A DNA stretch of 64,000 nt from Cyanobium sp. (lineage in GTDB: Bacteria; Cyanobacteriota; Cyanobacteriia; PCC-6307; Cyanobiaceae), in assembly GCA_044370835.1 (NCBI GenBank), contig JBILUS010000013.1, positions 10,231 to 74,230 of the forward strand, given 5' to 3'. Of the stretch, positions 33,573 through 45,020 are shown one piece after another; position 1 is the stretch's first letter, and the number at the start of each line of letters is the position of its first letter. The notes beneath the pieces were generated by a model. The model made no database searches. It worked only from the letters and a program-made list of their open reading frames with translations, and was not told where the DNA came from. The translations under genes were made by a program, and so were the position numbers.

Positions 33573-36227
33573 ATGGCGGATCCCACCGGACCCGGCGAAA
33601 ACAGTCCCGGCGAATCCGACGGACGGATCATCCAGACCGATCTCCGCAACGAGATGTCGCGCTCCTATCTGGAGTACGCGATGAGCGTGATCGTGGGCCG
33701 GGCCCTGCCCGATGCCCGCGACGGCCTCAAGCCCGTGCACCGGCGCATCCTCTACGCGATGTACGAGCTGGGGCTCACCAACGACCGCCCCTACCGCAAA
33801 TGCGCCCGTGTGGTGGGCGAAGTGCTGGGCAAATACCACCCCCATGGCGACACCGCGGTGTACGACGCCCTGGTGCGCATGGCGCAGGACTTCTCGATGC
33901 GCATGCCCCTGATTGATGGGCACGGCAACTTCGGCTCGGTCGACAACGACCCTCCGGCTGCGATGCGGTACACCGAATCGCGGCTGCAGGCGCTCACCAC
34001 CGATGCCCTGCTGGAGGACATCGAGAGCGAGACCGTCGACTTCGTCGACAACTTCGATGGCTCCCAGCAGGAGCCCACCGTGATGCCGGCGCGGATTCCG
34101 CAGCTGCTGCTCAACGGCTCCACCGGCATCGCCGTGGGGATGGCCACCAACATCCCCCCCCACAACCTCACCGAACTGATCGACGGCCTGCTGGCCCTGA
34201 TCGCCAACCCCGAGCTCGACGACCGGGCCCTGATGGCGATCATCCCCGGGCCCGACTTCCCCACCGGCGGCCAGATTCTCGGCCGCCGCGGCATCCGCGA
34301 GACCTACACCACCGGCCGGGGCTCGGTGACGATGCGCGGCGTGGCCAACATCGAAACGATCGAGGCCAAGGGCCGGCCCGATCGCGATGCGGTGATCATC
34401 ACCGAGCTCCCTTACCAGACCAACAAGGCGGCCCTGATCGAGCGGATCGCCGAGCTGGTCAACGACAAGAAGCTCGAGGGCATCGCCGACATCCGCGACG
34501 AAAGCGACCGCGACGGCATGCGGATCGTGATCGAGCTGCGGCGCGATGCCTATCCGCAGGTGGTGCTCAACAACCTGTTCAAGCTGACGCCGCTGCAGAG
34601 CAACTTCAACGCCTACCTGCTGGCGCTGGTGAAGGGTGAGCCGATCCTGCTCACCCTGCGCAAGATGCTCGAGGTGTTCCTCGACTTCCGGGTCGAGACG
34701 ATCGAGCGCCGCACCCGCTACCTGCTGCGCAAGGCCGAGGAGCGCGACCACATCCTGCTCGGCCTGCTGATCGCCCTCGACAACCTCGACGCGATCATCG
34801 CCCTGATCCGCTCGGCCGCCGACACCGCCTCGGCCCGCCAGGGCCTGATGGACCAGTTCGGCCTCAGCGAGGTCCAGGCTGACGCGATCCTGCAGATGCA
34901 GCTGCGGCGCCTCACCGCCCTCGAGGCGGACAAGATCCGGCTGGAGCACGAGGATCTGCTCGCCAAGATCACTGACTACCAGGACATCCTGGCGCGGCGG
35001 GAGCGGGTGTTCGGCCTGATCAACGATGAGCTCCAGGCGATCCGCAGCCGCTACGACTCCCCCCGCCGCACCGAGATTCTCGATCTCGAGGGCGGCCTCG
35101 ACGACATCGATCTGATCGCCAACGAGCGCTCGGTGGTGCTGCTCACCGAGAACGGCTACCTCAAGCGGATGCCGGTGAGCGAGTTCGAGGCCACCAGCCG
35201 CGGCACCCGCGGCAAGGCCGGCACCCGCAGCCAGGGTGAGGAGGCGGTGAAGCTGTTCATCAGCTGCAACGACCACGATTCGCTCCTGCTGTTCAGCGAC
35301 CGTGGCGTGGTGTATTCGGTGCCGGCCTACCGGGTGCCGATCTGCAGCCGCGCCGCCAAGGGCACGCCGATCGTGCAGCTGCTGCCGATCCCCCGCGAGG
35401 AGGCGATCACTTCCCTGGTGTCGGTGAGTGCCTTCGACGACGACGTGCAGCTGGTGATGCTGACCAGCGGCGGCTACGTGAAGCGCACCCGTCTCTCGGC
35501 CTTCAGCAACATCCGCTCCAACGGCCTGATCGCCATCTCCCTTGAGGAGGGCGACGACCTGCGCTGGGTGCGGCTTGCCCTCCCCGGCGACAGCGTGCTG
35601 ATCGGCTCTCTCAAGGGCATGACGATCCACTTCCGGCTCAGCGATGAGGAGCTGCGGCCCCTGGGGCGCACGGCGCGCGGGGTGCGGGCCATGAACCTGC
35701 GCGAGGGCGACCGGCTGGTGAGCATGGATGTGCTGCCCGCCGAACTCGCCGACCGGGTGGCCAGCAGTGAGGCCGCCGGTGAGGACGACGAGGCTGAGGA
35801 GGTGGCGGCCAGCGAGGGCCCCTGGGTGCTGGTGGCCAGCGCCAGCGGTCTGGGCAAGCGGGTGCCGGTGGATCAGTTCCGGCTCCAGAAGCGGGCCGGC
35901 ATGGGCTTGCGCTGCATGAAGTTCCGCCGCGACGGCGATGTGCTGGTGGGCCTCAAGGTGCTCGGCGCTGGCGAGGAATTGCTGCTGGTGAGCGAACGGG
36001 GCGTGATCGTGCGGATGCCCGCCGATGCCATTCCCCAGCAGTCGCGGGCGGCCACCGGCGTACGCCTGCAGCGCATCGATGCCGGCGATCGTCTGGCCGA
36101 GGTGGTGCTGGTGCCGCCGGCGCCCGAGGGCGAGGAGAGCGAGGTCGACGACGATCCGGGCAGCACCAACGCGGCGGCCACCGATGCCCCCAGCGACAGC
36201 GCGGACGCCGCGGCCACCGATGCCTGA
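33573..36227 (+). CDS. gyrA: DNA gyrase subunit A
   Basis: [41 protein letters not shown], GyrA-box-like RGTRG, beta-pinwheel repeats. Confidence 0.97.
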
Positions 36228-37353
36228 TCACCACGGCGATCTCTGGATCGCCAACACGGTGAGCGATCTGATCCAGGGGGACATCAACGAACATCTGCCC
36301 CTGGAAGCCATCCCCCTGAAAGGCGACGTGCTGGGCCTGGGCACCACCACCAGCATCGACAACGGCGAGCTCAGCTTCCTTCCCAACAGCGACGGCAACA
36401 CCACCATCTGGAAGTGTGATGCGGCCCGGGGCGGCATCCGGGCCCTGCAAAGCGGGGATGGCAGCGCCCATTTCCCTTATGTGTGCTTCAGCGCCGATGC
36501 CACGGGCGTGCGGCTGCCGGTGGATCCGGCCGAGCTCGGCGATGTGGAGGGCCAACCCCTGCAGACGCTGCTAGGGCCGTTGATCACCCGCTTGCGCCGT
36601 GAAGGGCGCCTGGTGGAGGCCCCGATCTATGGGATTCGCCTCCGCTGCCGGTGGCACGCGCTGGTGATCACCGTGTCCTCGAAGCTGTGCATGGCGCAGC
36701 AACGCCGCAACCAACGCTTCCGTGCCGTCTGCGAGCCCGCACAACCGGCGGGGGGCAGCATCTATGACCAACTCCAGCACTTCCGTCTCAGCGAGAGCGA
36801 TCCGGCAGACCGCAGCGATCCGATCCGTTTCCTCGGGCGTTCGCTCGATTGGGAGTGCTGCGGCTTCTGGGACACCGATCCCAGCGCCGGTCGGGTCACG
36901 ATCCCGCAGCCGGACGACCACCTGCATCTGCACGGCTGCAGCACGGATCTGCTCCACGGAGGGCACCTCCGTCATGAACACCCGGGTAGCCGGCTGCGGG
37001 GGATCGAGCAGCTGTCGATCTACCCCCTGCAGCGCCTGCACCAGCTGGCGAGCGATCTGGCGGTGGAGCGGCCGTTGTTTGAAGCCGGGATAGTCCAGTT
37101 CAGCGTTGTCAATCGCGGTGCGATGGACATCAGCGATGTGGGGGTTGCCATCGTGATCGACGATCGCTATTCCGATCACCGCTATCTGCGGCTGCCCTGG
37201 CTGGCGGCCGGGCAGGAGGAGCGTTACAGCCTTGGCCTCGATCTCTCCCCCGGGCCGCACCGCCTGGAGGTGATCGCCGATCCGGAGCAACAGATTCTGG
37301 AGGCTGCCGAGCTGCAGGCCAACAATCGCGCCGTTCTCGAGGTGCAGCTGTGA
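36220..37353 (+). CDS. Alpha-acetolactate-decarboxylase-fold protein fused to a C-terminal CARDB (Ig-like) domain
   Basis: GD.LGLGT...NGEL, YGIR, GF, HLHLH...GGH; then DLAV...V.NRG...LAAG...H.LEV.ADP...I.E...NN. Confidence 0.7.
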
Positions 37354-38606
37354 ACGGGGTGAGCGCCGGGCCGATCGCCGAGGTGCTGGTGATCGGCTCC
37401 GGGCCCGCCGCCCTGGCGATCGCCGCCGCCCTGGTGGAGCGGGGGCTACGGGTGGAGGCCCTGGCCCTGGAGGATCCTGCGGCCCCCTGGCCCAACACCT
37501 ACGGCATCTGGGGTCCGGAGGCGGATCGGGCCGGCCTGGGCCACCTGCTGGAGCACCGCTGGAGCAACACCGTGAGCTGGTTCGGGCCCGAGCCCACCCG
37601 CCACGGCATCGACTACGGCCTGTTCAACCAACGCGGCCTGCAGCAGCACTGGCTGGATCAGCTCGCGGCCGCCGGCGTGGTGTGGCACCGGGGCCGAGCC
37701 GAGGCCATCCGCCACACCGCGACGGATTCGGAGGTCTGCACCGCCGGCGGCGATCGCCTGAAGGCCCGGCTGGTGGTGGATGCCAGCGGCCATGAGCCGG
37801 TGTTCGTGCAACGCCCCACGGGGGAGCCGATCGCGGAGCAGGCCGCCTACGGCATCGTGGGTCGCTTCTCAAGGCCACCGGTGGATCCCGATCAGTTTGT
37901 GCTGATGGATTTCCGTGCCGACCACCTCAGCGAGGTTGAGCGCCGCAACGAATCCCCCACCTTCCTCTACGCCATGGATCTGGGCGAGGGCCGTTTCTTC
38001 GTGGAGGAGACCTCCCTGGCCCTGGCCCCGCCCGTGCCCTATCCGGTGTTGCAGGAGCGGCTGCAGCGTCGTTTGGCCCACGCCGGCATCACCGTGGCGG
38101 CGATCGAGCACCAGGAGTTTTGCCTCTTCCCCATGAATCTGCCCCTGCCCGATCTCGAGCAGCGGGTGGTGGGCTTCGGTGGCGCCGCCTCGATGGTGCA
38201 TCCCGCCTCCGGCTATCTGGTGGGCTCCCTGCTGCGACGGGCGCCGGATCTGGCGGACGCCATCGCTGGAGCCCTGGCTGATCCCGCCCTCGATGGCGCC
38301 GCCGTGGCCCGCCAGGCCTGGGAGGGCCTCTGGCCCCTGGAACTGCGGCGCCGCCACGCCCTGTTCCGCTTCGGCCTCGAGAAGCTGATGCGCTACCCCG
38401 AAGAACAGCTGCGGACGTTTTTCATCACCTTCTTCGCCCTGCCCCGCCAGGAATGGAGCGGCTTTCTCACCAACACCCTGCCCCTGCCCGAACTGGTGGG
38501 GGCCATGGTGCGGCTGTTTGCCACAGCCCCCTGGAGCGTGCGCTGGGGCCTGATGCAGCAACAGGGCCGGGAGCTGGGCCTGCTGGGCAGGGTTTTGGCG
38601 CCCTGA
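37350..38606 (+). CDS. crtL: Lycopene cyclase (CrtL type)
   Basis: VIGSGPAA, WPNTYGIW, DASGH, LMDFR, PTFLYAM, FVEETSL, GGAASMVHPASGY. Confidence 0.92.
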   Translation: MNGVSAGPIAEVLVIGSGPAALAIAAALVERGLRVEALALEDPAAPWPNTYGIWGPEADRAGLGHLLEHRWSNTVSWFGPEPTRHGIDYGLFNQRGLQQHWLDQLAAAGVVWHRGRAEAIRHTATDSEVCTAGGDRLKARLVVDASGHEPVFVQRPTGEPIAEQAAYGIVGRFSRPPVDPDQFVLMDFRADHLSEVERRNESPTFLYAMDLGEGRFFVEETSLALAPPVPYPVLQERLQRRLAHAGITVAAIEHQEFCLFPMNLPLPDLEQRVVGFGGAASMVHPASGYLVGSLLRRAPDLADAIAGALADPALDGAAVARQAWEGLWPLELRRRHALFRFGLEKLMRYPEEQLRTFFITFFALPRQEWSGFLTNTLPLPELVGAMVRLFATAPWSVRWGLMQQQGRELGLLGRVLAP

Positions 38607-38746
38607 TGGGGTTCCTGGCTGATCACGATGCGATTCCGCTGTCGATGGGCTGCGGTGCCTCAACGAAGCAGCCTGGAGCAGCCCGCTGCCCCCCATCAGC
38701 CAACGCGGTCCTCCATGATGCGGATCTCAGGAAGGGGTTCGACACC

Positions 38747-39358
38747 ATGGCCTCGGGCGTCGCCAGCACGGGTGTTCCGGCGGAATCGGCCGCCGATTGC
38801 CGCACCGAAGTGCTTCACCTCCTACGGGATCGGGGCCACGCCAGTTCGGCCGCCGAGGCGCCCCGGGTGCGGGAGCTGCTGCAGCGGCTGGAGCATCTGC
38901 AGCCCGCCAACCTCGCGGCCGAGAGCGACCGGCTCACGGGGGTGTGGGAACTGCGCTGGAGCAGCAGCCGCCAGCCCTATCTGGCGGTGGCGCCCTGGCT
39001 GGAAAATCTGCAGCTGCTCGATCCGCGGCGGGGCCGGGCCATGAACCTGCTGCGCCTGGCCGGCCTGGTCGCTCCCCTGGCCGGCATCGCGGTGCAGGCC
39101 CGCATCACGGTGGAGGGCACCCAGCGGGTGGGTGTGCGCTTCGTGCGGGGCGGCTGGCTTGGCCCCCGGATCGGCCAGCGGCGCCTCCAACTGCTGCGCG
39201 AGGTGAACCAGAGCTTTCCGGCCTGGCTGGACATCACCGTGCTGGATGACGACCTGCGGGTCTGCCGCGGTAACGCCGGCACCCTGTTCGCCCTGGTGCG
39301 CCGCCCGGAGTTGCAGCTGGAGGACTTCTTCGGCGACCAGCCCGGGAGTACGGGGTGA
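38747..39358 (+). CDS. PAP/fibrillin family protein
   Basis: L.G.WEL.WSSS, NLQLLD, AWLDIT.LD..LR..RGN.GT.F.L; start uncertain (38606 also possible). Confidence 0.8.
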   Translation: MASGVASTGVPAESAADCRTEVLHLLRDRGHASSAAEAPRVRELLQRLEHLQPANLAAESDRLTGVWELRWSSSRQPYLAVAPWLENLQLLDPRRGRAMNLLRLAGLVAPLAGIAVQARITVEGTQRVGVRFVRGGWLGPRIGQRRLQLLREVNQSFPAWLDITVLDDDLRVCRGNAGTLFALVRRPELQLEDFFGDQPGSTG

Positions 39359-39463
39359 ACAGGGGCTGTGGGCGGCCCACCATCAGCCGGCGGATGCGAA
39401 GGTTTTCCTCATGCCAGCCCTGGGGTTCAGACCTAGCGTTGGCCCGATCGGCAGTCTTGCTCC

Positions 39464-40264
39464 TTGGACGCAGCCCCGGCCACCACCGTCGCTCAAGCGG
39501 CACCGAAGTGGACCCTGTTTCTCAAGGTGCTGCCCCTCACCGCCCTGTTTGCCCTTGCCAAGCTTGGCGTGCACCGGCTTGGGCTGGAACCCTGGGAGTT
39601 CGATTCCCTGACGGGATCGCTGTTTGGTGCTTCCACCTTCGTGCTGGCGTTCGTGTTGAGCGGCACCCTGGCCGCCTACAACGCCAGCGAAGACATGGTG
39701 GTGCAGTTCATCAACGCGGTGGAATCGATTGAGGATATCAATCACTACCTCGCCCGCCTCCAGCCCCAGCTCGAAACCGCCAACCTCACCACCTGCCTGG
39801 CCGATCTGCTGAGGCAGCTGGCGCAATGGCTGGCCAATCAAGTTGGGTTTGAGGTGATCGATGCCCGCCTTGCCGAGCTCACCCAGATCCTGGCGGACCT
39901 GCGCCAGAACAGTGGCGACTCCGTTGTCGATCGAGGTTTGCCTGAGCTCGCAAGGCTCCGGATCCTGGTCAACCGGATGGCCAGCAATCGAGACAGTGAG
40001 TTTCTGGGACCCGCCTATGCGATGCTCGAGATTTTTCTGGTTGGCGCCGTTTTGGCGCTTGTGCTGATCGGGGCTGATCGATTCAGTGAAAATATGGTGG
40101 TTTCCTGCTTTTTGTTCACCTCTTTCACCTATTTGTTGCTGCTGATTCGTGATCTTGATAATCCCTTCCAGTACGACGGCAGCTCCTGCGTTGATGTTGA
40201 CCTATCCGTTTTGCATTCCTGCCGGCAGCGATTGCTGGGCCGGGGAGGCGCCACGCCTAATTGA
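39464..40264 (+). CDS. Bestrophin-like (DUF4239-type) membrane protein
   Basis: 2+2 TM layout with a cytoplasmic helical insert and LIRDLDNPF motif. Confidence 0.6.
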   Translation: MDAAPATTVAQAAPKWTLFLKVLPLTALFALAKLGVHRLGLEPWEFDSLTGSLFGASTFVLAFVLSGTLAAYNASEDMVVQFINAVESIEDINHYLARLQPQLETANLTTCLADLLRQLAQWLANQVGFEVIDARLAELTQILADLRQNSGDSVVDRGLPELARLRILVNRMASNRDSEFLGPAYAMLEIFLVGAVLALVLIGADRFSENMVVSCFLFTSFTYLLLLIRDLDNPFQYDGSSCVDVDLSVLHSCRQRLLGRGGATPN

Positions 40265-40314
40265 GCATGAGTGAGCCTGATTGAGTTTGCTTCCACGTTC
40301 ATCTCTGTAAAGCC

Positions 40315-42468
40315 ATGGTACTGAAGCTTTTTCGACAACTCGGGGTGCAATCCAAGGTTCTGGCCATGGTGCTGCTGGCCAGTCTGCTGAGCCTGCTGCT
40401 CACAGGCCTGGTGAGCTACAGCATCGGCAGCCATGTGCTCACCACTGCGGTCACGAATCAATTGGTTGCCCTGCGCAACAGCCGCGTGGAAGCGATTAGG
40501 GATTACTTCGGTTTCCTTAGTAACCACGTGCTCACGATGGGCGAGGGTTTTCTGGTGATTGATGGCCTTAAGGATTTTCGTGCCGCCTATCCCAAGCTTC
40601 AGAACACCACCCTTAGCGCGGAGCAGCAGAAAAAACTCGTTGCCTATTACACCGATGTCTTCATTCCCAGGCTCAAAAAGAATGTCGACGGCGAGCCTGC
40701 ACTGGCCACCTACCTGCCCAATACTCCTGCCGATCGCTACATCACCTATCACTACACGGCCAACAATCCCCGCGCCCCGCATCTGTATGAGTTGCAGGAT
40801 GCTGGTGATGGCAGTGAATACAGTGCTGTCCATCGCAAATACAGTCAACGCTTCCGCCGTCTTGCCGAGGTCTTTGGCTATCGCGACATCTTTCTCGTTG
40901 ATGTCGATAGCGCCGACGTTTTGTTTTCCGTGGCCAAAGAAGCGGATATGGGCTCCAACCTCAGGACAGGCGTTTATGCGGACACGGCTCTTGCTAAGAC
41001 GTTTGATGAGATCCGCAAATCGCGTGATCCCAATTTTGTTTATATCTCGGATATTGAACACTACAAGGCCAGTTTCGGTGAGCCGGCCCTTTTTATCGGC
41101 ACCACCGTGTTTGATGGCGATCAGTTCATCGGTGCCCTGATCTATCAGGTGAATCCTGGGGCGATTGACCGGGTGATGACCGATAACAAGAAGTGGGAGC
41201 AGCAGGGCCTTGGTAAAACAGGAGAGTCATTCCTTGTGGCCCAGGATTTCAAGCTCCGCTCCTCCCCAAGGGCGTTTCTGGAAAACCCAGATCAATACTT
41301 CCAAACCCTTCGTGCTCAAGGCGTTACGAAAGAGAAGATTGATTGGATCAAGAGGGCCAATAGTCCGGTTCTGATCCAGGAGGTGAGAACCGAGGGGGCA
41401 AAACGGGCTCTCGCCGGCCAGACCGGTGAGGCTGAGGAAGTCGATTACCGCGGCAAGCGTGTGTTCAAGTCCTTTCAGCCGATCCGGATTGGCAATTTTG
41501 AGTGGGGCTTGGTGACCAAGATCGATAAGGCCGAAGCGCTGCAGGGGGTGTATCGCCTGCGCGATGCCCTGCTGCTGCTGGGTGCCATCCTCATCCCCCT
41601 GCTCACCCTGATGTCCCTGGCATTGGCGCGCAGTTTCATCCAGCCGATTCAGCGCTTGATGCGGGCCACCAAGCAGATCATTGCCGGCGATAGCTCCGTG
41701 CAGGTGAAGGTGGATTCTGCCGATGAATTCGGCGAGCTTTCCCGCTCCTTCAACAGCATGGCCACCACCCTGCAGCAGCGGGAGGAGTCGATCCGCTCCC
41801 AGCTGCAGGAGAACGACCGGCTGCTGCTCAATATCCTGCCGGCCCGCACGGCCGAGCGGCTCAAGCAGGGGGAACAGTCGATCACCGAGCAATATCCGAG
41901 CGTTTCGGTGCTCTATGCCGATCTCGAGGGCTTCCAGGACCTTTCCGCCGAACTGGCGCCCGACCAGGCGATCGTGGTGCTCAATGAATTGATCGGCGCC
42001 TTCGATGATGCTGCTGAACGGTGCGGCGTCGAGAAGCTGCGCAGCACAGGCTCCAACTACCTGGCGGTCTGCGGCCTTTCGGTGCCGCGGATCGACGACG
42101 AGAAGCGCACCGTGGAGCTGGCCCTGGCCATGCTGCAGGTGGTGGAGCGGCTCAGCGCCAAGCATGGCGTGCGCCTCAGCCTCGATATCGGCATCCACAC
42201 GGGCGCCCTGGCCGCCGGTGTGGTGGGCCGGGGCAAGTTTTATTACGACGTCTGGGGCGAGACGATGACCATCGCCCGGGCCATCCACGCCTCCCCCAAG
42301 CAGAACGTGATCCAGGTCACCGAGCCGGTGGTGCGGGCCCTCGATGGGCTTTACAGCTTCGACCCCCTGACGCCCGTTGAGGTGAAGGGCGAGGGGGTGA
42401 TTCCTATCTGGGAGTTGACCCGGTTGGATGCCGCCCTGGTTTCCGCTGCTGCGGGAGGCGCAGGATGA
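40315..42468 (+). CDS. Cache-sensor / HAMP / class III nucleotide cyclase protein with degenerate active site
   Basis: TM - extracytoplasmic domain - TM - HAMP (DEFGEL..SFN.M) - LLLNILP - YADLEGF - GIHTG - YDVWGE. Confidence 0.88.
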   Translation: MVLKLFRQLGVQSKVLAMVLLASLLSLLLTGLVSYSIGSHVLTTAVTNQLVALRNSRVEAIRDYFGFLSNHVLTMGEGFLVIDGLKDFRAAYPKLQNTTLSAEQQKKLVAYYTDVFIPRLKKNVDGEPALATYLPNTPADRYITYHYTANNPRAPHLYELQDAGDGSEYSAVHRKYSQRFRRLAEVFGYRDIFLVDVDSADVLFSVAKEADMGSNLRTGVYADTALAKTFDEIRKSRDPNFVYISDIEHYKASFGEPALFIGTTVFDGDQFIGALIYQVNPGAIDRVMTDNKKWEQQGLGKTGESFLVAQDFKLRSSPRAFLENPDQYFQTLRAQGVTKEKIDWIKRANSPVLIQEVRTEGAKRALAGQTGEAEEVDYRGKRVFKSFQPIRIGNFEWGLVTKIDKAEALQGVYRLRDALLLLGAILIPLLTLMSLALARSFIQPIQRLMRATKQIIAGDSSVQVKVDSADEFGELSRSFNSMATTLQQREESIRSQLQENDRLLLNILPARTAERLKQGEQSITEQYPSVSVLYADLEGFQDLSAELAPDQAIVVLNELIGAFDDAAERCGVEKLRSTGSNYLAVCGLSVPRIDDEKRTVELALAMLQVVERLSAKHGVRLSLDIGIHTGALAAGVVGRGKFYYDVWGETMTIARAIHASPKQNVIQVTEPVVRALDGLYSFDPLTPVEVKGEGVIPIWELTRLDAALVSAAAGGAG

Positions 42469-44093
42469 GCAATCCGCTCCTGTTCGCTGCCGCCAGCGCC
42501 GCCAGTCCCAGCGGCAGCACAACCCTGATCGCGCCGGGCGCCGCGGCTGCGGCAGCCCTCGGACACCTCAATCCGTTCTGGGTTTTCGTGCTGGTGCTGG
42601 GCTTCCCGCTGCTGATGCTCCTGCTCGGCGAGGGACTCCGTTGGCTGCAGCGCCACCAACCGGCCTTCGTGGCGCCGCTGGCCATCCTGCGCAACTGGAC
42701 CCTGCCGGCGCTGGCCCTCTATTTGCTGCTGGTGGATCTGCTGGCGCGGCCCCGATCGGCGGTGGGGGTGCGGATCAGCGAGACCCTGGTGTGGATCACC
42801 CTGATTCTGGCGGCCCTCTCGCTGCTGAATGTGATCCTGTTTGAGGGGGCACCGCAGGGCAGCTGGCAGGCCAAGGTGCCCAAGCTGTTCCGCGATCTGG
42901 GCCGCTTCCTGCTGGTGCTGATCGGCTCGGCGATCGTGCTCTCCAGCGTCTGGGGGGCCGATCTGGGCGGCTTCCTCACCGCCCTGGGGGTGGGATCGCT
43001 GGTGCTGGGTCTAGCCCTGCAGGACAGCCTCGGCAACATCTTCTCCGGCGTGGCCCTGCTGTTCGAGCAGCCGATCGGCATGGGCGACTGGGTGCAGATC
43101 GGCGACAGCCTCGGCGAGGTGGTGGAGGTGAACTGGCGTTCGGTGCACCTCAAGACCTTCAATGACGATCTGAGGGTGATCCCGAACTCGGAACTCGCCA
43201 AGGGCCAGTTCATCAACTTCAGCCGTCCAACACCCCTGCACCGCGTCGAGGTGCCGATCTCCTTTTCTTACGACGATCCCCCCAATCGGGTGCGCCAGCT
43301 GCTGATTGGCGCGGCGCTGGAAATTCCCGCTGTTCTGGATACACCGCCGCCGGATGTGGTGGTGGTGAGTTATGGGGATTTCGCGATCAACTACAAGGTT
43401 CAGGTCTTTGCGCCCGATTACCGCACCGGTGACGGAATCCAGGATGAGATCAACCGGCGCATTTGGTATCTGGCCAAGCGGCATGGCCTCACGATGCCCT
43501 ACCCGATGCAGCAGGAGGTTCCCTACGAGTCCACCGCCCCCACGCCCGTTCAGCAGGGTGTGGCCTCGCTGCAGTTGCTGAAGAGCACACCCGGCTTCGC
43601 CTCCCTCTCCAGCGAACGGCTGGAGCAGCTTCTGGCCGATTGTCAGGTTCTCTCCTATGCCACCCATGAGGTGGTGGTGCATCGCCTGATGCCTCTCGAT
43701 GGCCTCTACCTGATCCTGAGTGGCGAGGCCGAGTTGGTGGTGCCTGATGTCAACGGCCGCTCCTGCAGCCTGGGGGTGCTGTTGCAGGGGGAATGCTTCG
43801 GTGAGAAGAGCTCACTGCTGCATGGCCGTATTGCCGAAACCACCGTGCGCGCCTGCGACGACCTCGAGGTGCTCGTGATCCCTGCCGAGCGCCTGCAGGA
43901 GGTGTTGGTGGAGTCTCCCCGCCTGGCCTCCGATCTGGCCGAGGTGATCGAGATTCGTCAGAGGGCCGCGGCGAAGGTGCTGGAGGGAGGGCTGCAGAGG
44001 CGACGATCTGCGGCAACCCCGTTGCCACAACCTGTCGAAGGCCCGGCGGTGGATGGGAGTACCGCTGGGGGTGTGCAACGGTTGCTGGGTTGA
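42465..44093 (+). CDS. MscS-family mechanosensitive channel with C-terminal cNMP-binding domain (bCNG-like)
   Basis: LGLALQDSLGNIFSG, GDWVQIG, IPNS.L, FSY..P; C-terminal GE.FGE...TVRA; ATGA overlap with the cyclase gene. Confidence 0.9.
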   Translation: MSNPLLFAAASAASPSGSTTLIAPGAAAAAALGHLNPFWVFVLVLGFPLLMLLLGEGLRWLQRHQPAFVAPLAILRNWTLPALALYLLLVDLLARPRSAVGVRISETLVWITLILAALSLLNVILFEGAPQGSWQAKVPKLFRDLGRFLLVLIGSAIVLSSVWGADLGGFLTALGVGSLVLGLALQDSLGNIFSGVALLFEQPIGMGDWVQIGDSLGEVVEVNWRSVHLKTFNDDLRVIPNSELAKGQFINFSRPTPLHRVEVPISFSYDDPPNRVRQLLIGAALEIPAVLDTPPPDVVVVSYGDFAINYKVQVFAPDYRTGDGIQDEINRRIWYLAKRHGLTMPYPMQQEVPYESTAPTPVQQGVASLQLLKSTPGFASLSSERLEQLLADCQVLSYATHEVVVHRLMPLDGLYLILSGEAELVVPDVNGRSCSLGVLLQGECFGEKSSLLHGRIAETTVRACDDLEVLVIPAERLQEVLVESPRLASDLAEVIEIRQRAAAKVLEGGLQRRRSAATPLPQPVEGPAVDGSTAGGVQRLLG

Positions 44094-44125
44094 GAGGAGG
44101 TGGCGCGGCTCGGGGTCGCTTCTCC

Positions 44126-44956
44126 TCAGAACTCCTCGTCTTCGCTGTCCTCCTCCTCCGGGGGCCAGGCCAGGTTGATGGTCACCGGCGCGTGGTCGCT
44201 CGGTTGCAGGTTGCCGCGCACCCCGGCATGAATCGTGCAGCCCAGGGCGTGGTCGCGGAGTTCGGCATCGAGATAGACGTGGTCGATCCGCCAGCCGCGG
44301 CCCATCTCCCAGCCGGCGGTGCGGTAGTCCCACCAGCTCCAGTGGCCGGCCCCGGGCTCAAACAGCCGGAAGCCATCCTCCAGCCGCTCCCCCAGGGCGG
44401 CGAGCAGGGCCACGCGTTCCGGTTCGCTGGCCATGATCCCGCCGGTGAGGCGGGCCGGGTCGTGGATGTCGCGGGCCTCCAGGGCGATGTTGAAGTCGCC
44501 CACCATCACCAGGGGCTCACCTGAAGCCTCCTGGGCCTCCAGGTAGCGCTTCAGGCAGGCCAGCCATTCGAGCTTGTAGGCGTACTTCTCCGAGCTCAGC
44601 GAAGAGCCGTTGGGCACGTAGAGGTTGAGCACGCGCAGGCCCTCGACACGGGCGCTGATCACCCGCTTCTGCTCCCCTAGGCCCGGGGCCTGCGGATCCT
44701 GCGGCAGCAGCGGCGCGAAGCCCACCTGGACATCCTCGAGCGGCAGGCGGCTGAGAATCGCCACGCCGTTGTAGGCCTTCTGGCCGCTGATCGCCGCCGT
44801 GTAGCCCAGGGCCTGGAAGGCCTCGAAGGGGAAGAGCTCATCGGCCACCTTCGTTTCCTGAAGGCACACCACCTCGGGTGCCTCGGCCTCGAGCCAGGCC
44901 CGCACCTGGTCGAGGCGCGTGCGCACCGAGTTCACGTTCCAGGTGGCGATCCGCAT
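44126..44956 (-). CDS. xth: Exodeoxyribonuclease III
   Basis: MRIATWNVNSVR, CLQETK, YNGVAI, YVPNG, GDFN, WWDYR, GWRIDH, SDHAPV. Confidence 0.95.
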   Translation of the reverse strand: MRIATWNVNSVRTRLDQVRAWLEAEAPEVVCLQETKVADELFPFEAFQALGYTAAISGQKAYNGVAILSRLPLEDVQVGFAPLLPQDPQAPGLGEQKRVISARVEGLRVLNLYVPNGSSLSSEKYAYKLEWLACLKRYLEAQEASGEPLVMVGDFNIALEARDIHDPARLTGGIMASEPERVALLAALGERLEDGFRLFEPGAGHWSWWDYRTAGWEMGRGWRIDHVYLDAELRDHALGCTIHAGVRGNLQPSDHAPVTINLAWPPEEEDSEDEEF

Positions 44957-45020
44957 GGTCGGCTGCGTTGGCAAAACACTCGTAAAGTCGACTCACGTCG
45001 TGAGCCCCGGGCCGCAGGTT

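Follow-up and report, generated by a model that had tools for sequence, protein, structure and literature searches.

The cyclic-nucleotide-gated channels of bacteria (bCNG channels) are homologues of the mechanosensitive channel MscS and are found mostly in cyanobacteria (Caldwell et al., 2010; Malcolm et al., 2012; PMC13591265). According to a 2026 review these channels are reported not to protect against downshock, no structure is available, and the physiological role as well as the role of the nucleotide in gating are unknown (PMC13591265). Among the cyclases, Rv2435c of Mycobacterium tuberculosis has been grouped with the mammalian-type enzymes (PMC3961136), and in trypanosomatids the regulatory subunits of PKA have lost the Arg of the phosphate-binding cassette and acquired a Glu that is in steric conflict with the phosphate; their ligands, bound with nanomolar affinity, are inosine, guanosine and adenosine (PMC10959531). 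Here, we analyzed a 64,000-nucleotide stretch of the genome of Cyanobium sp. (GCA_044370835.1, contig JBILUS010000013.1, positions 10,231 to 74,230), in the following called the window, which contains a coupled gene pair for a receptor with a class III cyclase-homology domain and for an MscS-family channel with a cyclic nucleotide-binding (CNB) homology domain at its C terminus. Because both nucleotide sites lack their defining residues, both genes are under selection, their adjacency is conserved and canonical cyclic AMP (cAMP) components are present elsewhere in the same genome, the two genes may form a hard-wired sensor-channel pair without cAMP as messenger, in which the channel is controlled independently of cAMP and probably by direct contact; we consider the chances of this reading to be about even. 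The recurrence of the same pairing across cyanobacteria makes it probable that the pair signals without ordinary cAMP. Both partners are of known kinds, a bCNG channel and a class III cyclase receptor, and it is the mechanism of the pair that is potentially important. A literature search found no paper on the receptor-channel pairing or on the majority of such channels that lack the phosphate-binding Arg.

Nucleotide sites of the receptor and the channel

On the + strand of the window three co-oriented genes lie in a row, encoding a bestrophin-like protein, the receptor and the MscS-CNB channel. The features are as follows (position in the window, strand, description):

39464..40264, +, bestrophin-like membrane protein, 266 amino acids (Pfam Bestrophin-like PF14023, E 1.1e-5, 25.6 bits, below the cut-off of 32)
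40315..42468, +, receptor with degenerate class III cyclase-homology domain, 717 amino acids (Pfam, AC9/AC5 alignment, catalytic signature, omega)
41920..42282, +, stretch with the six catalytic positions, codons 536-656 (alignment to AC9/AC5 and the family)
42465..42468, +, ATGA stop/start overlap, translational coupling (sequence)
42465..44093, +, MscS-family channel with C-terminal CNB-homology domain, 542 amino acids (Pfam, AlphaFold2 model)
43797..43853, +, non-canonical phosphate-binding cassette FGEKSSLLHGRIAETTVRA, residues 445-463 (CAP alignment, family comparison)

The receptor is composed of a transmembrane helix, a periplasmic dCache_1-like domain, a second transmembrane helix followed by a HAMP domain (residues 437-488; PF00672, E 8.7e-14), a transducer segment (LLLNILPARTAERLK) and the cyclase-homology domain (residues 525-699). 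The dCache_1 match between the two helices reaches 35.9 bits, which is under the Pfam gathering cut-off of 45, and homologues of the receptor have precomputed PF02743 matches. The class III cyclase fold is recognized with an E-value of 9.7e-38 (Guanylate_cyc, PF00211), and the best sequence matches of this fold together with the preceding transducer segment are mammalian-type cyclases (E 1e-36 to 1e-47). Within the periplasmic domain a YS..H..YH stretch at residues 169-177 (about 40819-40845) is strongly conserved, with H173 present in 68/69, and does not match the amino-acid-sensing dCache motif.

The catalytic residues were assigned by alignment to C1 and C2 of mammalian AC9/AC5 and to 20 family members. 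This resulted in the signature D536 / R576 / S580 / E649 / T652 / A656, in which five of the six residues are replaced. The first metal-binding Asp is retained (D536 in YADLEGF) and the second one (Asp2) has become S580, so that the two Asp of a competent cyclase are not present together. The specificity residues Lys and Asp are replaced by R576 (EKLRSTGSNY) and E649, a combination that corresponds neither to the Lys/Asp of adenylyl cyclases nor to the Glu/Cys of guanylyl cyclases, and at the positions of the transition-state Asn and Arg we found T652 and A656 (WGETMTIARA), with an Arg at 655. In the class III active site one subunit gives both Asp and the other one gives Lys, Asp, Asn and Arg, as established in the work of Tesmer and Linder. 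The domain should be unable to act as the metal-binding half because Asp2 is missing, and unable to act as the other half because Asn and Arg are missing. As residues of both half-sites are lacking, neither a homodimer nor a heterodimer would complete an active site, and a rescue by heterodimerization with another cyclase was therefore ruled out. We infer from this signature that the cyclase domain of the receptor is catalytically inactive. In the cyanobacterial genome G280, which carries two tandem partner receptors, both are degenerate as well.

The channel contains the transmembrane, beta and C-terminal parts of MscS (MS_channel 1st/2nd/3rd: PF21088, PF00924, PF21082), followed by a C-terminal cNMP_binding domain (PF00027, E 3e-15). 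An AlphaFold2 model of residues 355-510 has a predicted local distance difference test score (pLDDT) of 94.6 and matches the CNB domains of CRP, GlxR and PKG with TM-scores of 0.65-0.74, and therefore the CNB fold is intact. The register of the cassette was taken from aligning the channel to E. coli CAP with phmmer, which gave no gaps and in which CAP residue n corresponds to channel residue n+375. G71/E72 of CAP are kept as G446/E447 and R123 is kept as R498; Q80 corresponds to R455, R82 to A457, S83 to E458 and A84 to T459. The cassette thus has A457 and E458 in place of the Arg and the Ser/Thr/Ala of the canonical arrangement (Gly-Glu ... Arg-Ser/Thr/Ala). In this alignment the Arg that neutralizes the cyclic phosphate is missing, and an acidic side chain occupies the position where Ser/Thr/Ala contacts the phosphate. 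An initial sequence-only reading of the locus had arrived at the same register, with the phosphate-binding Arg replaced by Ala and the following Ala by Thr, and had named a canonical position of the Arg in the motif GRI as a finding that would contradict it; this Arg is R455 and aligns with Q80 of CAP. R455 was also considered as a shifted phosphate-binding Arg and rejected as a feature of the family: most members have Gln or Glu at this position, so that no conserved replacement of the canonical Arg is present there, and R455 may play this part within the Cyanobium subclade alone. Loss of the cassette Arg cuts the affinity for cyclic nucleotides by orders of magnitude in PKA, CAP, HCN and MloK1. 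It is likely from the cassette residues that the CNB domain of the window channel fails to bind cAMP at physiological levels.

The reading frames and the overlap of the two genes are present as initially described: the start codon ATG of the channel gene (42465-42467) and the stop codon TGA of the receptor gene (42466-42468) overlap, and a GGGAGG sequence is located at 42453-42458, 6 nucleotides upstream of the channel start. Furthermore, the suggestion that both nucleotide sites deviate in genes that are intact and translationally coupled holds, as the defining residues are replaced and both nucleotide-handling domains are under purifying selection with omega values of 0.11-0.27. These values were calculated according to Nei-Gojobori for the window pair against six orthologues of the Cyanobium clade and amount to 0.11-0.15 for the cyclase-homology domain (residues 501-705), 0.14-0.27 for the CNB domain and 0.10-0.17 for the MscS core, the range of the CNB domain thus resembling that of the core. 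The same cyclase residues are found in 117/120 receptor homologues (83-100% identity), and all close homologues of the channel have HGRIAE or HGR[IV][AS][DE] in the cassette; since the homologues share identical substitutions, neither chance nor sequencing noise accounts for them. The loss of several defining residues in both proteins could also be expected from non-functional, decaying remnants of a former cAMP pathway. We see hardly any chance for this explanation: more than 100 genomes have uninterrupted frames, the substitutions are fixed, the 4-nucleotide overlap is conserved, and the omega values given above contradict simple decay, which we exclude. Random pseudogenising decay among the orthologues, which would have spoken against the initial proposal, was not found. 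The synonymous divergence (dS) relative to the related locus L066 is uneven along the pair, with about 0.55 in the Cache part (40315-41600) and about 0.09 in the MscS core (42870-43515), which suggests recombination or a mosaic history inside the cassette of genes.

Family, canonical counterparts and genomic setting

The receptor-channel pair is an old and widespread module, present across cyanobacteria and in a few other phyla, and not peculiar to the source genome. Adjacency and overlap of the two genes are conserved over about 90 genomes. A search of 401 cyanobacterial genomes and a species-level genome collection yielded 101 related channel genes, and pairing was counted on the 97 with sufficient upstream sequence. 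A homologous Cache/HAMP/cyclase gene is located directly upstream on the same strand in 88 of them; the two genes overlap or abut in 50 of these 88 pairs, and 25 show the exact 4-nucleotide overlap. Members of the family are present in Cyanobium/Synechococcus, Snowella, Microcystaceae, Xenococcus, Crocosphaera, Acaryochloris marina, Phormidesmis, Microcoleus, Synechocystis sp. LKSZ1 and Scytolyngbya, and a few family members occur in metagenome-assembled genomes (MAGs) labelled planctomycete or proteobacterial. The channel is the sole constant partner gene of the receptor, and no conserved third gene was found across the family. A natural cyclase-channel fusion (Rosetta stone) was not found either; in the long relatives the fused part is a solute-binding protein, for example an SBP_bac_1 domain in P0249, or a second CNB domain.

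Several loci deviate from the simple pair. On one strand of L044 (G280:C5, 2096-10079) two receptors, two channels and a bestrophin-like gene follow each other, and both receptors are degenerate (EKSEN). The order in L083, L086 and L091 is receptor-channel-receptor. In L179, L181 and L183, which belong to another subclade without the Arg, a gene for a PBP_like_2 protein (PstS-like periplasmic binding protein) adjoins the channel, and the receptor of L183 has a weak globin match in addition.

The canonical Arg of the cassette is missing in 78 of 79 non-redundant channels, the position being occupied by Ser in 61, Ala in 12 and Arg in one. The glutamate of the Gly-Glu motif is also replaced in a number of members, and G446 and R498 are nearly invariant. 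In the partner cyclases the six catalytic columns range from the 40th to the 88th percentile of column entropy and are not specially conserved; R515 of the transducer segment and structural residues are invariant across the family. A tree of 80 receptor-channel pairs contains three nested groups. Clade I (23 pairs) has kept Asp2, has the cassette GEPSPVS and retains three to six of the six catalytic residues, all six only in four pairs from Microcoleus. In clade II (17 pairs) Asp2 is Ser or Thr, the cassette is neutral and mostly four to five catalytic residues are left. Clade III (40 pairs), to which the window pair belongs, has lost Asp2, carries an acidic [SA][DE] cassette and retains zero to three catalytic residues. 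The partners in the Acaryochloris group retain five of the six, and the channels without Arg include those paired with the complete cyclases of Microcoleus. Contrary to an initial assumption, the canonical partners are thus not Nostocales CyaA but come from Microcoleus.

As the Arg is missing family-wide, even beside canonical cyclases, the defect of the receiver predates the decay of the producer, and the Arg-less cassette is ancestral to the whole family of cyclase-coupled channels. This modifies the sequence-only reading, which had proposed a joint loss by producer and receiver: both sites deviate, but the loss of the Arg, which is missing in 78/79 channels, was not simultaneous with that of the catalytic residues. 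The co-variation of cyclase and cassette substitutions, which had been recommended as a check, was analyzed on the 80-pair tree; as both traits, acidic cassette and missing Asp2, go back to a single change each, the test has no statistical power.

The source genome also contains canonical counterparts of both partners. Three other cyclases (contigs C47, C41 and C5) have all six catalytic residues, 14 CNB-domain matches were detected, and a second MscS-CNB channel of 487 amino acids (G000:C12:123411-124742; L005 1351-2814, minus strand) has the canonical cassette FGEMGLCTGEPRSATVRS. Its upstream neighbor is a DAHP-synthase-like gene, and it has no cyclase neighbor. This C12 channel is a ready internal control for the cassette defect of the window channel within the same genome. 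Because the dead pair and canonical cAMP components share one small genome, the clade of the window pair is clean test material. In a contrast search over 1.84 billion cluster representatives, MscS-CNB channels fell into two sets: the canonical GEPR[ST] cassette is present in a minority, about 22 of about 135 alignable relatives, and the others, which are the majority, lack the phosphate-binding Arg. None of the canonical channels with readable neighborhood (P0273, P0277, P0298, C12 and P0327) has an adjacent Cache/HAMP receptor, and P0327 follows a small, fully canonical cyclase. The sampled channels without Arg are almost always paired with a Cache/HAMP cyclase-like receptor, and such a gene is adjacent in three of four further representatives. 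In this small sample the cassette sequences fit a rule by which channels that read free cAMP would stand alone or beside a working cyclase and those without Arg would be wired to a receptor.

The genome of 2.78 Mb with a GC content of ~70% belongs to a freshwater picocyanobacterium, whose nearest named relatives are freshwater Cyanobium and ‘Synechococcus sp. UW140’ MAGs. Positions 39400-44100 of the window are an AT-richer insertion of three genes, a mobile cassette, with GC contents of 0.59 (0.589 for the bestrophin-like gene), 0.59 and 0.65 compared with about 0.70 in the flanks. Both in this genome and in its close clade the three genes are located between a PAP-fibrillin gene (38453-39358) and the exodeoxyribonuclease III gene xth (44126-44974, minus strand), and these two are directly adjacent (empty site) in at least 10 congeneric genomes; a lycopene cyclase gene is also among the flanking genes. 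No flanking repeats were found at the ends of the cassette. In the Cyanobium clade the bestrophin-like gene has a conserved place upstream of the pair, with 68-87% identity (L066, L071-73, L076-78, L094), and in G280/L044, an unrelated cyanobacterium, it is located downstream of the pair, with 53% identity. It is confined to these two and is outside the family-wide core; no sequence relative of its product was found in the PDB. An open reading frame for 442 amino acids at 36025-37353 with a C-terminal CARDB domain (E 5.6e-5) overlaps the start of the lycopene cyclase gene.

Possible modes of action: direct contact, changed ligand or residual cAMP signaling

If the pair acts without cAMP, a periplasmic ligand would bind to the Cache-like domain, and the signal would travel via the second transmembrane helix, HAMP and the transducer segment, which is conserved, to a dimer of the cyclase-homology domain. 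This domain, no longer catalyzing, would serve as output module and act on the CNB-homology domains below the cage of MscS. It would thereby shift the opening of the channel, with direct contact as the most likely means. We infer that the receptor and channel proteins touch, and a direct contact of the two cytoplasmic domains would be the simplest output. Several points weigh against this mechanism. A dimer that acts on a heptameric channel is geometrically awkward. The Microcoleus partners retain all six catalytic residues and those of the Acaryochloris group five, and therefore cAMP may still be made and read in a non-canonical way in parts of the family. The pocket of the CNB domain seems to be partly intact (G446, E447 and the invariant R498), which would fit a retained small-molecule site. 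In addition, cAMP effects are reported for some MscS-CNB channels (Caldwell 2010, cited in PMC13591265). A more far-reaching version, which we put forward tentatively and as a possibility somewhat short of even, is that MscS-CNB channels without Arg would not be nucleotide-gated at all and would be output subunits of chemoreceptor-channel complexes, with the cyclase-homology dimer docking mechanically on the ring of CNB-homology domains and the messenger being lost stepwise from clade I over II to III. If this is true, the docking complex would be a ligand-gated solute valve, made by putting a second-messenger pair to a new use.

The main competing explanation is that the ligand has changed, which we regard as unlikely and still worth serious attention. 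The CNB domain would bind a small molecule without the charge of the cyclic phosphate, for instance a nucleoside or some other metabolite that bears a ribose or is cationic; residue 458, being acidic, would exclude cAMP, and the receptor would bind a nucleotide without turnover or act independently. The ribose-contacting G446/E447 and R498 are kept and the small residue at 457 is conserved, which suggests that the pocket is in use, and the CNB fold is predicted with very high confidence. A precedent exists in the trypanosomatid PKA regulatory subunits, which bind nucleosides without the cassette Arg (PMC10959531), and the trypanosomatid PKA structure 6hyq is among the fold matches of the CNB model. 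However, the trypanosomatid acidic residue is at the position of PKA A202, where the present family has Ser or Ala, and the acidic residue of this family is located elsewhere. E447 is V, A, Y or T in many members, so that the ribose contact is not universally kept, and a changed ligand leaves the tight gene coupling to a cyclase-like receptor unexplained. A weaker rival, which seems improbable to us, is a low-affinity or otherwise non-canonical reading of cAMP, supplied by the canonical cyclases or, elsewhere in the family, by the partner, with the dead cyclase as scaffold or regulator. The three canonical cyclases and the 14 CNB-domain matches of the genome, the family partners with five or six of the six catalytic residues, and the reported cAMP response of bCNG channels (Caldwell 2010, cited in PMC13591265) are in line with it. 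Nevertheless, the affinity loss by orders of magnitude that accompanies loss of the Arg in PKA, CAP, HCN and MloK1, the acidic side chain at the Ser/Thr/Ala phosphate-contact position in addition, and the maintenance of a separate channel with the perfect cassette FGEMGLCTGEPRSATVRS in the same genome speak against such a reading.

A cyclase together with a CNB-bearing membrane effector on a mobile island also resembles a Pycsar-like anti-phage module. The AT-richer cassette is inserted at a site where congeners do not have it, and PADLOC gave weak matches to PycC (22 bits) and PycTIR (21 bits). These scores are on the level of generic domain homology and below the threshold for the PycC clade and for CNB effectors. 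The cyclase is a Cache/HAMP membrane receptor nearest to mammalian-type adenylyl cyclases and, as its catalytic residues are missing, it cannot make a signal; the effector is a full MscS channel, and many lineages of cyanobacteria have kept the pair stably by vertical descent. We therefore consider a function in anti-phage defense very improbable.

Comparison with known systems

If the receptor gates the channel directly, the pair would connect a chemical cue outside the cell with the release of solutes or ions in a new way and would be a clear case of a producer-receiver pair that has outlived its messenger. The locus is also a warning against annotating such genes as adenylate cyclases and cyclic-nucleotide-gated channels. 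The window channel is built like bCNG channels, with the pore and cage of MscS and a CNB domain at the C terminus. It lacks, like its cyclase-coupled family, the phosphate-binding Arg, and a canonical channel of the bCNG type with GEPRSATV exists separately in its genome. In the fold of the catalytic domain and the transducer segment the receptor resembles membrane class III adenylyl cyclases with HAMP domain (class IIIa/b; mycobacterial Rv1625c/Cya structures 4p2m and 5o5k; mammalian AC5/8/9), but five of its six catalytic residues are replaced, and the catalytic columns of its family are as variable as average columns.

Two systems outside the bacteria show how a CNB domain can work without cyclic nucleotide. 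Like the window channel, the trypanosomatid PKA regulatory subunit has a CNB fold without cassette Arg and with an acidic residue incompatible with the phosphate, and this PKA is functional with another ligand; unlike in the window channel, the acidic residue is located elsewhere in the cassette, the context is that of a kinase regulator, and there is no pseudo-cyclase partner. The CNB-homology domains of KCNH channels (EAG/hERG) are likewise channel-attached CNB-like domains, which work without cyclic nucleotide via protein-protein contacts. KCNH channels are eukaryotic and voltage-gated and have an intrinsic-ligand motif, and the likeness to the window channel considered here is that of the fold.

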